Source of the DNA: a virus
Lineage: Monodnaviria > Loebvirae > Hofneiviricota > Faserviricetes > Tubulavirales > Inoviridae
DNA: 9,240 nt
IMG/VR virus record: IMGVR_UViG_2541047969_000007
Strand: one strand, 5' to 3'
A program made the translations under genes and the position numbers. The number at the start of each line of letters is the position of its first letter. Position 1 is the first letter of the stretch. The notes below the pieces were generated by a model that did not search any database, was not told the DNA's origin, and saw only the letters and a list, made by a program, of their open reading frames with translations. Below are positions 1-9,240 of the stretch, in pieces.

Positions 1-95
1 TACATTATGCGCACCAATGGTAAGGATGGCAGAATCTGGCGGGAATCGTTGACACTGGCCGTCAACTGGCTACTATCGACAGTGATTCAAAATCA
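1..95. repeat. Left copy of a 95-bp exact direct repeat; begins with the dif XerC-arm-like sequence TACATTATGCGCACC
   Basis: Identical to 9146..9240 by direct comparison. Nt 5..15 (TTATGCGCACC) is the reverse complement of the E. coli dif XerC arm GGTGCGCATAA (dif recalled from memory). Confidence 0.9.
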
Positions 96-155
96 TCCGT
101 TTCTCCAAACGAATCAGAATCAAATGTCTGTCAGCAGTAAGTGAACGGCCTGACC

Positions 156-404
156 TCACCAATCAGGCCTGTTCATCCAGTTAGTTGGTAAATCTGTACC
201 TGATACACGAGAATCAAACACCACTTCTTCAGTGCCATCACCATGATGCCGGATAATCTGGTAACCGGATTGCGGGTTCTGGCTCTCAGCTTCATAAGCA
301 GCCCGGAATGCTGGATCTTTAAGAAGCATCACTTTCAGCTCCTGATGTGTCATGAATTTTTCCATGATAAGCCCCGATGAATGCTGCCGCGCCGAATCAG
401 CCAT
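156..404 (-). CDS. Hypothetical small acidic protein; likely start at the internal Met (ATG at 363..365, 69 aa)
   Basis: ORF of 82 aa in the same orientation as the phage core genes. The internal start MEKFMTHQ has a weak GGGG Shine-Dalgarno 6 nt upstream. No recognisable domain; the stop codon is embedded in a hairpin (143..174). Confidence 0.3.
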   Translation of the reverse strand: MADSARQHSSGLIMEKFMTHQELKVMLLKDPAFRAAYEAESQNPQSGYQIIRHHGDGTEEVVFDSRVSGTDLPTNWMNRPDW

Positions 405-549
405 AACGCTGAAAATGGAAACTGTACGGCTTGGCCAACCCCGGACAGCAACAAAACAAGTTTTGTCACTGACCGGCGTTATCTTTCAAAACAGACAGTT
501 AACGATTTTTTGTCTGGTGTTTATGCGTGAAATTTCGTGCGTACGAAAT

Positions 550-798
550 TCACCACCAATAAACAAACGGACGATGACTGACCGGAAAAGCAATGCCGTC
601 AGCATCATGACCACGCATTACCTGATTGAGAAGCCTTCTGACTTCACGACGCTCAGGCCTGGTCATCATCATATTGCGATACCAGGACGGCGATTTATCA
701 AACCATCTGGCACAACTGGCAAAATGTGAACCTACACGACGATAAGACTTAAGGCGGCCACCGGGAAGTCGGTCACGCGCCTTATTTTTTACAGACAT
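550..798 (-). CDS. Hypothetical Arg-rich small protein (82 aa); doubtful
   Basis: Good RBS (AGAGGA, 6-nt spacer, ATG). However the Arg-rich N-terminus (KNKARDRLPGGRL) is the antisense reading of a GC-rich plus-strand terminator hairpin (751..790), so the ORF may be a shadow. Confidence 0.25.
   Translation of the reverse strand: MSVKNKARDRLPGGRLKSYRRVGSHFASCARWFDKSPSWYRNMMMTRPERREVRRLLNQVMRGHDADGIAFPVSHRPFVYWW
751..790 (+). terminator. Rho-independent terminator (plus strand)
   Basis: GC-rich stem AAGGCG (751..756) pairing CGCCTT (778..783), with an inner stem ACCGG/CGGT, followed by a T-tract ATTTTTT (784..790). On the minus strand no U-tract follows, so it is plus-strand specific. Confidence 0.55.
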
Positions 799-886
799 AA
801 TAAATCCTCTAAGTAACTGAATACCTAGAAGATGTCGTACTGTTCATACCCCATAAAAGTTAACGCCATAATAAAAATCCATACAA

Positions 887-2131
887 TCAGTTCAGGTTGT
901 CCCGGAACAGTTCACCGCTCCTCGCGGCGCTGCGGGGCGTCGCCCTGCTCCGGTCAACCTTTCTGACCTGAAGCATCACCATAATATCAGTCTTGTTGCT
1001 TTCACTGGTACGGGAACCGAAGAAGCTCCAGCCGGAACTGGCCTTACTGTCTTTCTGTTCAGCAAGGCCACCAAGTAAAATAATATCACCATCTGCAAGG
1101 CTGACTTCGGTTGTTACATCACGCTTGATAAGGGTTGGCGAGTTATTGACGCCGGTTTCAGTGGTCACAAAGTTGGAAAGCTGCTGCTGAATCTTGAGAT
1201 CCATTGTCCGACTTTTGATTGATGGCGTCACGTTAAACAAAACACCGCTGGAACGATATTCAACGGATTGCGTTGTCGTATTGTTATTCACCGTAACACT
1301 GCCCAGTACTGGCACATCAGAGCCGACTGAAAAAGACGCTGAGGCATTATTTTTTACCCGCAGTCGTGGCGCACTGACAACAGTAAAACGACTGTCGGTT
1401 TTCAGCAGATTGAAAATGGCATCAATGGAGCCGGTTCGAATATTGATAAAATTATCCAGTCCGGCAGCACCAACTGAAATATTGAATTTATCAGACAGAA
1501 TTTTAGCCGCTAAAAGAATGCCGGAGCCGTCAGACTGCGAGGTCTGAACCTCAAAAACATAACCAGAAACAACCACTTCATCACTCATCGTATCCAGCGA
1601 AGTGACCAGTGTTTTCAGGATGGCGATATCCTCTTTCGTACCATAATAAACCAGAATATCACCGGTTCGATTGATGTAGTTGCTTGCCCCTGATGAACCT
1701 TTTAGCGAATCGTCAGAAATCACGGCTCCACTGTTATTGAAGGAGCCTGAAACGTAGCCGCCAAGAATATCAGACAGGTAGGCAACAGAACGGTACTGAG
1801 GCGTATAAGTCCATGTATAACGTGGCTTAACCGGCTCTTTCGGCGTATAGGGCGCGATAAAATCAACACCCTTTTTCGTCCATATTCGAATGTTCATATT
1901 GCCAAGATAACGGGTTACAAATTCCCGTTCATCAATATCAGGTGTTAACCTGAATGTAATCATTCGTTCATCATTAACAAGCTGTGGATCTAGCATATAC
2001 GGGACTTTAAGCACCTCACTGTAAATAAGAGAAATAGCCTCCGGTAGCTTGACTTTATTTAATTCAAGCTCTGACCCTGCGAAAGCACATGAAGAAAATA
2101 GTAGCGTTAATGCGAGTAAAATCTTTTTCAT
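887..2131 (-). CDS. Secretin, filamentous-phage pIV-like outer-membrane export channel
   Basis: 414 aa. N-terminal signal peptide MKKILLALTLLFSSCAFA. C-terminal secretin-domain motifs (GSDVPVLGS and VSLADGDIILLGGL). Start overlaps the stop of the upstream Zot/pI gene (ATGA at 2131). Confidence 0.85.
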   Translation of the reverse strand: MKKILLALTLLFSSCAFAGSELELNKVKLPEAISLIYSEVLKVPYMLDPQLVNDERMITFRLTPDIDEREFVTRYLGNMNIRIWTKKGVDFIAPYTPKEPVKPRYTWTYTPQYRSVAYLSDILGGYVSGSFNNSGAVISDDSLKGSSGASNYINRTGDILVYYGTKEDIAILKTLVTSLDTMSDEVVVSGYVFEVQTSQSDGSGILLAAKILSDKFNISVGAAGLDNFINIRTGSIDAIFNLLKTDSRFTVVSAPRLRVKNNASASFSVGSDVPVLGSVTVNNNTTTQSVEYRSSGVLFNVTPSIKSRTMDLKIQQQLSNFVTTETGVNNSPTLIKRDVTTEVSLADGDIILLGGLAEQKDSKASSGWSFFGSRTSESNKTDIMVMLQVRKVDRSRATPRSAARSGELFRDNLN

Positions 2132-8280: not shown

Positions 8281-8308
8281 TCAATAAAACGTAGAAGAGA
8301 GGAAATAT

Positions 8309-8584
8309 ATGAAACTGAATCCTGAGAAATACAATAGAAATATCACCCTGCTATGTCCTGTGTGCGGAAATACAGAGATGGAACACGAGGAAGAGTCTGA
8401 AGTCGTCAGATGTGTAGGCTGCGGGAAAGAATTCACTAATGATGAGTTAATCCAAGAAAACGGGGTGAGTATTGACGCCCATGTGGATGAGATAAAAGAA
8501 GAGTTAACAAAAGATATTCAAAAACAGTTTAACGACATGCTCAAAAAGGCATTTAAAGGAAGTAAAAATATAAGGATTAAATAA
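8309..8584 (+). CDS. Small zinc-ribbon protein (CPVCG-x18-CVGCG), unknown function
   Basis: 91 aa. Two CxxC pairs, then an acidic/lysine-rich helical tail. Strong RBS AGAGGA with 6-nt spacer. Stop overlaps the start of the next gene (TAATG). Confidence 0.6.
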   Translation: MKLNPEKYNRNITLLCPVCGNTEMEHEEESEVVRCVGCGKEFTNDELIQENGVSIDAHVDEIKEELTKDIQKQFNDMLKKAFKGSKNIRIK

Positions 8585-9063
8585 TGACAACAAGTGATGC
8601 CATCGCTTTAGCTGCGCTTGTAGTATCGATTTACACTATCATATCATCAGAAGTGAAGTCGAGAAAAAGTGATAGAGAACAAAAGGTTATAAAGGATGAG
8701 CAAGACAGATTACGTAAGTTGCTTCTGGAAAAAGAAACAAAGTCAGCAATTAATGAGATGAAGGCTGAGCTTGGTGCCCGCCTCGTAAAAATAGCCAAAA
8801 ACAACTATAGACTCAAGATATTTAATAGAGGGAAAGTTGAGGCTAAAAATATAGAGATTCATTTCCCTGATAACGATGGCAATGAATATCTTTCCATGCA
8901 TGATGTAGAAGATAAATTTCCATATGAAGTATTACACCCGCAACATGGGATTGAAATTTTAGCGGGACTAAGCTTTGGAAGCAAAACTAAATACCGAATA
9001 AAACTCATATGGGATGACAATTATAAAAAAAGGAATGAAGAGGAGTTTTTCATTTCTATATAA
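8584..9063 (+). CDS. N-terminally membrane-anchored protein with charged helical segment and C-terminal globular domain, unknown function
   Basis: 159 aa. N-terminal TM helix AIALAALVVSIYTIISS. Charged, probably coiled-coil region (KSDREQKVIKDEQDRLRKLLLEKETK). Translationally coupled to the zinc-ribbon gene. Followed by a hairpin at 9091..9130. Confidence 0.6.
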   Translation: MTTSDAIALAALVVSIYTIISSEVKSRKSDREQKVIKDEQDRLRKLLLEKETKSAINEMKAELGARLVKIAKNNYRLKIFNRGKVEAKNIEIHFPDNDGNEYLSMHDVEDKFPYEVLHPQHGIEILAGLSFGSKTKYRIKLIWDDNYKKRNEEEFFISI

Positions 9064-9066
9064 ATT

Positions 9067-9160
9067 GGTTCGCACAATGACGTTATGCTAAAGAGGCCGC
9101 TGCGGGATACGATTTTCGCAGCGGCCTTTTCAACATAACGAGTCGTACATTATGCGCACC
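9067..9160. other. Candidate attP: two inverted dif-like XerC/XerD sites flanking a GC-rich hairpin (forked-hairpin architecture)
   Basis: Site A (forward, 9067..9093) is GGTTCGCACAA-TGACG-TTATGCTAAAG. Site B (reverse, 9128..9160) has reverse complement GGTGCGCATAA-TGTACGACTCG-TTATGTTGAAA. Compared with E. coli dif GGTGCGCATAA-TGTATA-TTATGTTAAAT, the XerC arm of site B matches 11/11 and the other arms 9/11. Arms of A and B are mutually complementary (9/11 and 8/11) with unpaired central regions. Confidence 0.6.
9091..9130 (+). terminator. GC-rich hairpin with short T-tract; terminator of the accessory operon and/or tip of the attP hairpin
   Basis: Perfect 11-bp stem AGGCCGCTGCG/CGCAGCGGCCT (9094..9104 and 9117..9127), extendable by AAG/TTT, with a 12-nt loop, followed by TTTT (9127..9130). 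Confidence 0.55.
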
Positions 9161-9240
9161 AATGGTAAGGATGGCAGAATCTGGCGGGAATCGTTGACAC
9201 TGGCCGTCAACTGGCTACTATCGACAGTGATTCAAAATCA
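9146..9240. repeat. Right copy of the 95-bp exact direct repeat (start of the next phage unit or circular overlap)
   Basis: Identical to 1..95; begins at the dif XerC-arm-like sequence. Confidence 0.9.

Follow-up and report, generated by a model that had tools for sequence, protein, structure and literature searches.

The window, i.e., the whole 9,240-nucleotide stretch of DNA analyzed here, derives from a filamentous phage (Inoviridae) of extraintestinal E. coli that belongs to the CUS-1/YpfΦ lineage. What it presents is one full 9,145-bp genome, read across a head-to-tail junction and then 95 nt into the next unit, with a chromosomal array of such units at dif, possibly accompanied by replicative form, probably having been collapsed upon assembly.

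Terminal repeat and window ends

The two ends of the window are copies of each other:

1..95, + strand: left copy of a 95-nt terminal repeat, positions 1-15 of which are the core common to dif, TACATTATGCGCACC
9146..9240, + strand: right copy of the repeat, with which the next phage unit begins, phage rather than host DNA following the core

These copies are identical at 95 of 95 positions and their starts lie 9,145 nt apart, which bears out the exact 9,145-bp periodicity claimed in an earlier note on this DNA. An exact match over 95 nt excludes chance. This is also the sole long repeat in the window, as the remaining direct repeats are of 30 nt or less and below 100% identity over their length, the exception (D4) being a 100% copy within another (D1). 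Each copy opens, as the earlier note recognized, in the manner of the XerC arm of dif, that is, with TACATTATGCGCACC, 15 nt that the phage att site has in common with dif of E. coli. These correspond, in reverse complement, to the XerC arm of dif (GGTGCGCATAA) plus TGTA, the first 4 nt of the dif central region.

It had been argued too that a single prophage should have phage DNA to one side of each att site and host DNA to the other. This logic holds for an actual case, the single-copy GON1437, where host DNA (AAAATTATAG...) comes after the right-hand core, versus the phage DNA (AATGGTAAGG...) which comes after that of the window. The associated statement that identity extends for 80 nt beyond the core on both sides stands for the 3′ side but not for the 5′ side, the window having no sequence before position 1. 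Base 1 is the first base that is common to the dif-attL sequence (...ATAATA/TACATT) and the phage junction (...GAGTCG/TACATT). The window thus starts at the exact base, one in 9,145, upon which dif-phage and phage-phage paths converge, indicating that an integrated copy was present. Draft-assembly contigs of relatives (L028, L032, L049, and L051) end at this same core.

The phage unit and its relatives

The unit is that of a complete inovirus, encoding Rep, an ssDNA-binding protein, coat, pIII-like and pVI-like proteins, Zot/pI, a secretin, a repressor, and three cargo ORFs. The inovirus core set of G2P-type Rep, G5P, Zot/pI, and small coat protein is present (PF05144, PF05155, PF17426, and PF05707, with the coat protein recognized by phrog_2186). 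The features between the att sites are as follows:

156..798, − strand: two small conserved ORFs adjoining the att site, function unassigned (homologues of YPO2280a/YPO2281; phrog_6642; PMC4266046)
887..2131, − strand: phage-encoded secretin (pIV; PF00263, 1e-24)
2131..3156, − strand: assembly ATPase pI, Zot family (PF05707, 2e-26)
3160..3447, − strand: pVI-like minor coat protein, DUF2523 (PF10734, 1e-20)
3460..5172, − strand: pIII-like attachment protein, puvA of CUS-1 (phrog_3942, 4e-253; PMC4266046)
5237..5470, − strand: major coat protein (phrog_2186 virion structural protein, 4e-29)
5505..5756, − strand: small membrane protein, a minor virion protein candidate (phrog_3679; RefSeq 'membrane protein' in relatives)
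5759..6076, − strand: ssDNA-binding protein, G5P (PF17426, 1e-52)
6088..7140, − strand: rolling-circle replication initiator, G2P or gene II type (PF05144, 1e-73; PF05155, 4e-34)
7210..7266, no strand: imperfect palindrome of 27 nt, a probable operator, located between rep and the repressor gene
7312..7758, + strand: HTH repressor, RstR-like in position and fold (HTH_3, 2e-9)
7858..9063, + strand: cargo cassette, its three ORFs encoding proteins of 140 aa, 91 aa (an ECs_2282 zinc ribbon), and 159 aa, function unassigned

Matches of the coat ORF to Pfam Phage_Coat_B and of the repressor to phage_RstR are weak, the former falling under the curated cut-off and the latter likewise under cut-off. 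The start of the pIII-like ORF in RefSeq is shorter, at 5022. Domain searches found no integrase or recombinase domain in any annotated ORF of the unit. A search for a gpII nick site of Ff type (GTTCTTTAATAGTGGACT, allowing up to 3 mismatches) had no match and did not locate the replication origin or nick site, and a promoter and terminator consensus scan of 7100-9240 returned nothing over shuffle expectation.

Kinship with YpfΦ is close. Over the backbone (window 1-7838) identity with YpfΦ of Y. pestis NCTC5923 is 99.69% across 7,839 nt, Rep matches its Y. pestis counterpart at 100%, and identity over the att hairpin region described below is 98.8%. The CUS-1-lineage strain NU14 matches window 1-8281 at 99.4%. 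YpfΦ (YPO2271-2281) and CUS-1/CUSΦ of E. coli O18:K1:H7 share with the window phage insertion at dif, regeneration of an intact dif, tandem arrays, and the same junction, with YpfΦ described as forming 2-4-copy arrays and as having inverted XerCD sites (PMC4266046). YpfΦ nevertheless differs in having YPO2271/2272 in place of the window's cargo (7839-9062), with a unit of 8,742 bp versus 9,145 bp, and NU14-type phage in having cargo unlike window 8282-9064. Since YpfΦ and CUS-1Φ are array-forming and have been placed among CTX-type elements rather than in the VGJ column (PMC4266046, PMC4246890), the comparison with CTXphi and Ypfphi that was drawn in the earlier note was an apt one.

Copies in complete genomes

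The 9,145-bp unit is present, base for base, in complete E. coli chromosomes, and these identical copies occupy the dif site of the chromosome. Insertion has regenerated an intact dif at one end of the prophage, the complete 28-bp sequence (ATTTAACATAATATACATTATGCGCACC) being seen at the left phage end. GON1437 carries a single copy of the exact unit with clean attL and attR, AH21E028 carries the exact unit as a single-copy prophage, and FDAARGOS_1303 carries a three-copy head-to-tail array, flanked by intact dif and hipA, of which copies 1 and 3 have 0 mismatches to the window. Of the 17 complete genomes that match the unit over its full length, 10 have arrays, of 2 to about 6 copies, and 7 have single copies; strain A4 has 5 copies and NU14 has 2.

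The junction itself (9001-9240) is carried unbroken by 10 independent complete genomes at 97.9-100% identity, is shared by Y. pestis NCTC5923, and a family junction is spanned by at least 53 of the 60 chromosomal records listed. One strain, TUM14759, has, alongside chromosomal copies, a phage of 99.5% identity that is recorded as a 9,565-bp circle. Both of the states which had been offered in explanation of the repeat, a tandem array or a circle with terminal overlap, are therefore documented, arrays in 10 E. coli chromosomes as well as in Y. pestis and the circle in TUM14759. The unit had no megablast match among INPHARED phage records, so the phage evidently has been deposited solely inside bacterial genomes. 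Exact junction searches yielded 0 matches in JGI metagenome contigs and, in IMG/VR, only one related contig, of 8,021 nt.

The att sites and a predicted forked hairpin

At the junction are two dif-like sites in inverted orientation, both with abnormal spacers:

9067..9093, + strand: attP2, dif-like site, GGTTCGCACAA - TGACG (5 nt) - TTATGCTAAAG, kept in 17 distinct relatives
9095..9130, + strand: GC-rich stem-loop, GGCCGCTGCG / CGCAGCGGCC, followed by TTTT
9128..9160, − strand: attP1, dif-like site at the phage-phage junction, GGTGCGCATAA - TGTACGACTCG (11 nt) - TTATGTTGAAA

The attP1 central region, TGTACGACTCG, has only TGTA in common with the TGTATA of dif, this being next to the XerC cleavage site. 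As single-stranded DNA the two sites are predicted to pair into a forked hairpin (−31.2 kcal/mol, z = −7.5), of which the stem-loop at 9095..9130 would be the distal part, though that stem-loop also resembles a terminator of the cargo operon. The complementary strand folds less well (−29.1 kcal/mol). Paired cells make up 93% of the total across 17 distinct relatives, versus 31-53% in slid controls, and compensatory changes are seen at 5 pairs, albeit with limited diversity among these relatives and with the changes mostly from one divergent lineage, Brenneria.

Comparison with CTXΦ and VGJΦ

In CTXΦ of Vibrio cholerae there similarly is no integrase, tandem arrays form at dif, and two inverted dif-like sites, unequal in spacer length (one long, one short) and with dif homology limited to the XerC side, give rise to a forked ssDNA hairpin, a structure that for the window phage is a prediction. 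CTXΦ relies on the host's secretin, unlike the window phage, which carries its own. The two phages have no detectable nucleotide similarity, differ in host and in dif sequence, and have att sites which are about 90 nt apart in CTXΦ versus about 34 nt here. Spacers of CTXΦ attP1 and attP2 are 12 and 7 nt (PMC3089051), versus 11 and 5 nt. With both phages the repressor gene is divergent from rep and cargo adjoins att (PMC3089051, PMC4246890).

VGJΦ-type IMEX also are filamentous phages that enter dif via host XerCD. The VGJ type possesses a single, double-stranded attP, its spacer being of normal length (about 7 bp), and can excise. Such a double-stranded attP is ruled out for the window phage by its 11- and 5-nt spacers and its two inverted sites.

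Proposed integration mechanism

The packaged (+) strand would be the minus strand of the window, bearing the inverted attP1 (11-nt spacer) and attP2 (5-nt spacer), and these sites, as modeled, may fold into a forked hairpin that imitates a XerC/XerD site. Host XerC would act upon chromosomal dif at GGTGCGCATAA^TGTA, exchanging a single pair of strands, presumably through catalysis by XerC only, with replication then finishing the insertion, i.e., by resolving the resulting pseudo-Holliday junction, such that integration would be irreversible as in the CTX-type scheme. This should leave the prophage between an intact dif and a non-functional attP1. Observed attL and attR match this prediction of XerC-side exchange, and any crossover within the 15-nt core gives the same products. 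As the regenerated dif takes further copies, arrays build up, and the sequence of an array junction is the same as that of a circular replicative-form junction. Rolling-circle replication from the origin of one copy into the next may then, by analogy with CTXΦ, release new genomes.

Array, circle, or both

It is this sameness of junctions which complicates interpretation. Against an array are that the window is without host DNA while a replicative-form circle would give an identical junction, that TUM14759 holds its circular record, and that lab-transduced YpfΦ in E. coli is reported as mostly extrachromosomal (PMC4266046). The 95-nt overlap itself would reflect assembly collapse of an array into a single loop, an account (de Bruijn loop, k = 95) that is incomplete, as a contig for which attR was a graph branch should have ended at 9160-9162 rather than at 9240.

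A lone dif prophage together with a free circular replicative form could also generate the window, with the junction supplied by the circle and the dif-anchored contig start by the chromosomal copy. That combination, which seems unlikely, accords with the exact unit being single-copy in GON1437 and AH21E028, with the circular record beside chromosomal copies in TUM14759, and with extrachromosomal YpfΦ forms occurring even in lysogens. Should integration be irreversible, as with the CTX type, then a lone prophage nonetheless would regenerate no circles, fresh infection or autonomous replication instead being needed, and most complete genomes with the unit carry it in arrays (10/17).

Quite unlikely is that the window is a purely extrachromosomal circle, whether replicative form or virion DNA, that was assembled as a circular contig with an overlap equal to the assembler's k-mer. 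An exact terminal overlap is the standard signature of circular contigs, as with a Brenneria relative (9,278-nt contig, 240-nt overlap), and YpfΦ is only episomal in non-Orientalis Y. pestis. Random linearization of a circle, however, should break it at an arbitrary point, with a probability of 1 in 9,145 of falling upon the first dif/attP core base, which is where the window starts and where contigs of integrated relatives break as well; no circular record of the exact variant, moreover, was found in PLSDB or among complete E. coli genomes. That the repeat is an artefact without biological meaning, i.e., a misassembly or the first 95 nt appended to the end by a pipeline, is highly improbable and largely refuted, as an intact junction in 10 independent complete genomes makes that junction a real molecule. 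A collapsed chromosomal array, perhaps with replicative form also present, thus remains the probable source.

Cargo cassette

The 1.2-kb cargo cassette is the only part of the unit that differs from YpfΦ. Scans of its ORFs (Pfam, NCBIfam, PHROGs, and PADLOC) gave one match to the ECs_2282 zinc-ribbon family, several PHROGs of unknown function, and sub-threshold zinc-ribbon noise. A cassette with the same three cargo ORFs and attP, matching window 7757-9186 at 97.7% identity, occurs in the UPΦ phages (E. coli ECONIH2 type; Shapiro & Putonti 2020, PMC7307601). These likewise build tandem arrays at dif and share hosts with the window phage, but their structural and assembly genes are unrelated (IKe/I2-2-like) and their Rep/G5P only about 80% identical. 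A 71-nt end-piece, consisting of attP2 plus hairpin, lies downstream of at least 4 unrelated cargo genes across phage variants and is found, too, behind an unrelated gene of the STM4504 family on about 440 plasmids, most of them conjugative. That plasmid gene, upstream of an attP2-like half-site, was compared with the phage cargo proteins and has no homology to them. It is possible, if tentative, that the approximately 1.4-kb block at 7757-9186 (cargo ORFs, attP2, GC hairpin, and attP1) is a cassette that is portable between CUS/Ypf and UPΦ backbones.

Significance

Arrays at dif and episomal forms of the CUS-1/YpfΦ type are already known, having been described since 2002-2010, and the exact sequence of the window's unit is already in RefSeq genomes. 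For annotation, an inovirus contig of about 9 kb with a terminal overlap that starts at the dif core points to a collapsed dif-site array or replicative form, rather than to a plasmid or free virus genome, with copy number needing read depth or long reads. The survey also supplies background on filamentous prophages of ExPEC, that is, on array frequency (10/17), on copy numbers (reaching about 5-6), and on cargo cassettes that are common to UPΦ. If the cassette indeed is portable, then the att hairpin would be a recombination boundary for swaps of accessory genes among dif-phages, perhaps plasmids as well, with rolling-circle read-through across mixed arrays, as in CTXΦ/RS1 hybrids, a possible route for those swaps.

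Terminal Repeat

As an earlier note had claimed, positions 1–95 and 9146–9240 are identical (95/95 positions, at a spacing of 9,145 nt), and both copies do begin at a dif XerC arm. Each opens with TACATTATGCGCACC, that is, the reverse complement of the XerC arm of E. coli dif (GGTGCGCATAA) plus TGTA, the first four bases of the central region. The note's further claim, of 80 nt of identity beyond the core on both sides, holds for the 3' side but not for the 5' side, the window having no sequence before base 1. This pair is the sole long repeat in the direct-repeat listing; the remaining listed repeats are at most 30 nt and less than 100% identical over their length, with the exception of D4, whose 100% copy falls within D1. 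As junction sequence is alike in arrays and circles, the window alone is not decisive, just as that note had recognized.

Occurrence in Genomes

Seventeen complete E. coli chromosomes match the 9,145-bp unit at full length and at least 97% identity, with arrays in 10 of these carriers and single copies in seven; six complete E. coli chromosomes match at an identity shown as 100.0%. GON1437 has one copy: at its left end phage sequence begins after an intact dif (ATTTAACATAATATACATTATGCGCACC), and at its right end ...TTCAACATAACGAGTCGTACATTATGCGCACC gives way to host sequence (AAAATTATAG). FDAARGOS_1303 has instead three head-to-tail copies, flanked by dif and hipA, of which the first and third are base-identical to the window unit and the second lacks a single base. 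A 240-nt junction probe (window 9001–9240) is intact in 10 complete genomes, where the number of places hit points to 2 to about 6 copies; in strain A4 five are annotated. Counting all variants of the cargo (the variable ORFs beside attP), a junction of this family is spanned by at least 53 of the 60 top-ranked chromosomal records, and Y. pestis NCTC5923 has the same phage–phage junction as the window.

Strain TUM14759 carries both a three-copy chromosomal array (NZ_CP128877.1; L057) and a 9,565-bp circular record (NZ_CP128883.1; L004). The latter, labelled 'untypable plasmid', is the window's phage with different cargo and an attP1 spacer beginning TGTGCG rather than TGTACG; it may represent true replicative form, or assembly of the array may have produced it as a by-product. 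Frameshifted genes are abundant in all three copies of that array and in the inner copies of the A4 array (L017), and probably are long-read consensus errors in repeats rather than real decay. In the two-copy array of MS20658 (NZ_CP082075.1; L005 6004–14090), one copy, of 8,086 bp, is without the secretin gene and has a truncated Zot, and the full 9,505-bp neighbour could presumably complement it. A 248-kb K. pneumoniae plasmid (NZ_CP132684.1, 65941–75444) bears a near-complete phage (2 places; 99.4% identity at 92% coverage), which implies that the phage either integrated at a dif-like site of the plasmid or arrived by recombination. Relatives in MAGs labelled Aerococcus and Candidatus Nanosynbacter (L009, L011) almost certainly reflect binning contamination.

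Array or Circle

The window probably derives from phage copies arrayed in tandem on a chromosome, alongside which replicative form may also have been present. An integrated array is favoured because base 1 lies at a convergence of paths and because arrays are the commoner state of the exact unit in finished genomes. Base 1, that is, is exactly where the path from dif through attL, the left prophage–host junction (...ATAATA|TACATT), meets the phage–phage path (...GAGTCG|TACATT). Whole draft-genome contigs of relatives behave similarly, with L028 and L032 starting just past the core and ending on it, and L049 and L051 breaking at that same core. On the opposite strand the window forms a loop that leaves and re-enters the 95-mer ending ...GGTGCGCATAATGTA, the output expected of de Bruijn assembly at k = 95, a reading which does not fully explain the contig's run past the branch point at attR, the right junction.

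A single prophage accompanied by replicative form, single copies being the state of the minority of carriers, is unlikely. A pure episome is slightly less likely still, as a circle opened at random would start on base 1 in one case out of 9,145. An artefact is very improbable.

Gene Content

Profile searches reveal a complete inovirus gene set on the minus strand, along with plus-strand genes:

6088–7140, minus: Rep, G2P type
5759–6076, minus: G5P ssDNA-binding protein
5505–5756, minus: small membrane protein
5237–5470, minus: major coat protein
3460–5172, minus: pIII-like adsorption protein
3160–3447, minus: DUF2523 (pVI-like)
2131–3156, minus: Zot/pI
887–2131, minus: phage secretin
156–798, minus: two small conserved ORFs
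7312–7758, plus: HTH repressor
7858–9063, plus: three cargo ORFs

One of the three cargo ORFs is an ECs_2282-family zinc ribbon, and profile searches assigned no known function to the other two. There is no integrase among the unit's ORFs. The pIII-like ORF has a possible start at 5172 (570 aa), versus 5022 as annotated in RefSeq; as the PHROG profile alignment begins at residue 28, upstream of 5022, the RefSeq start may be too short. Within 7210–7266, in the interval separating rep from the repressor gene, is a 27-nt imperfect palindrome, likely an operator; a related direct repeat occupies 7246–7269 and 7309–7332. A 135-nt stretch of the repressor gene (7351–7485) is ~93% identical to HTH genes on listed conjugative plasmids.

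Att Region and Integration

Two inverted dif-like sites, about 34 nt apart, lie at the phage–phage junction:

attP1, minus-strand junction reading: GGTGCGCATAA-TGTACGACTCG-TTATGTTGAAA
attP2, inverted versus attP1: GGTTCGCACAA-TGACG-TTATGCTAAAG, 5-nt spacer

An 11-nt spacer separates the arms of attP1; its XerC side is the dif XerC arm unchanged, and its XerD-like side has 9/11 positions matching. CTXΦ has the same design, though with spacers of 12 and 7 nt (PMC3089051), and reviews describe the attP sites of CUS-1Φ and YpfΦ, both CTX-type (PMC4246890), as having the features needed for ssDNA integration. As ssDNA the region is predicted to form a forked hairpin, arms paired with arms and spacers bulged (minus strand −31.2 kcal/mol, z = −7.5; plus strand −29.1 kcal/mol). 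The layout is kept in 17 distinct versions (E. coli, Yersinia, Photorhabdus, Brenneria and IMG/VR contigs), with 93% of all cells paired versus 31–53% in slid controls. Five hairpin pairs show compensatory changes across these versions, covariation backing which is modest because most such changes come from one divergent lineage. In Klebsiella spallanzanii (L008), near fragmentary phage copies, is another, 121-nt inverted dif-like pair (AGTGCGCATAA... / ...TTATGCGAATC) with a longer hairpin between its sites, which may be a second att type.

A mechanism can be proposed from the phage family. The hairpin would form in the packaged strand, which is presumed to carry the phage genes in sense orientation and so to be the window's minus strand. 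By analogy, XerC would cut after GGTGCGCATAA in both partners, the common TGT(A) would stabilise strand exchange, and replication would then finish insertion. The expected product is host-GGTGCGCATAA-TGTACGACTCG...phage...CCATTGGTGCGCATAA-TGTATATTATGTTAAAT-host. Complete genomes have exactly this junction pair, though a crossover anywhere inside the 15-nt core would yield identical products. The regenerated dif would take further copies, resulting in arrays, and these, as with CTXΦ (PMC4246890), may template new genomes by rolling-circle replication. A replication origin was looked for in the unit and not located.

Relatives and Possible Cargo Exchange

The Y. pestis NCTC5923 prophage, which is YpfΦ, is 99.69% identical to window 1–7838 and 98.8% identical to 9063–9145, its period there being 8,742 bp; UPEC strain NU14, of the CUS-1 lineage, is 99.4% identical across 1–8281. 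Both differ from the window only in the cargo adjoining attP, the same place as the variable region already described for these phages (PMC4266046, PMC7307601).

Window 9066–9137, an attP2-like site with the GC hairpin next to it, recurs as a 71-nt, ~93% identical copy on some ~440 plasmids, most of them conjugative, of E. coli, Klebsiella, Salmonella and others. Inspection of a single example (NZ_CP094340.1, 15643–15713; L015 3501–3571) places this copy directly after an STM4504/CBY_0614-family gene, which has no homology to the phage cargo proteins, and shows no attP1 partner following the copy.

The phage family, integration site, tandem arrays and att architecture all were previously known, and the exact unit sequence is already public. 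Mildly new, and descriptive only, are array frequency, array size, the att half-site common to many plasmids, and a cargo/att cassette common to UPΦ, i.e., other dif-integrating E. coli inoviruses. Particularly, the UPΦ of ECONIH2 (NZ_CP014667.1; L018) has the window's cargo-plus-att block (7757–9186) at 97.7% identity, yet its backbone is unrelated (IKe/I2-2-like) and its adjacent Rep only 80% identical. That contrast indicates that the cargo-plus-attP cassette may be swapped between dif-integrating inoviruses.
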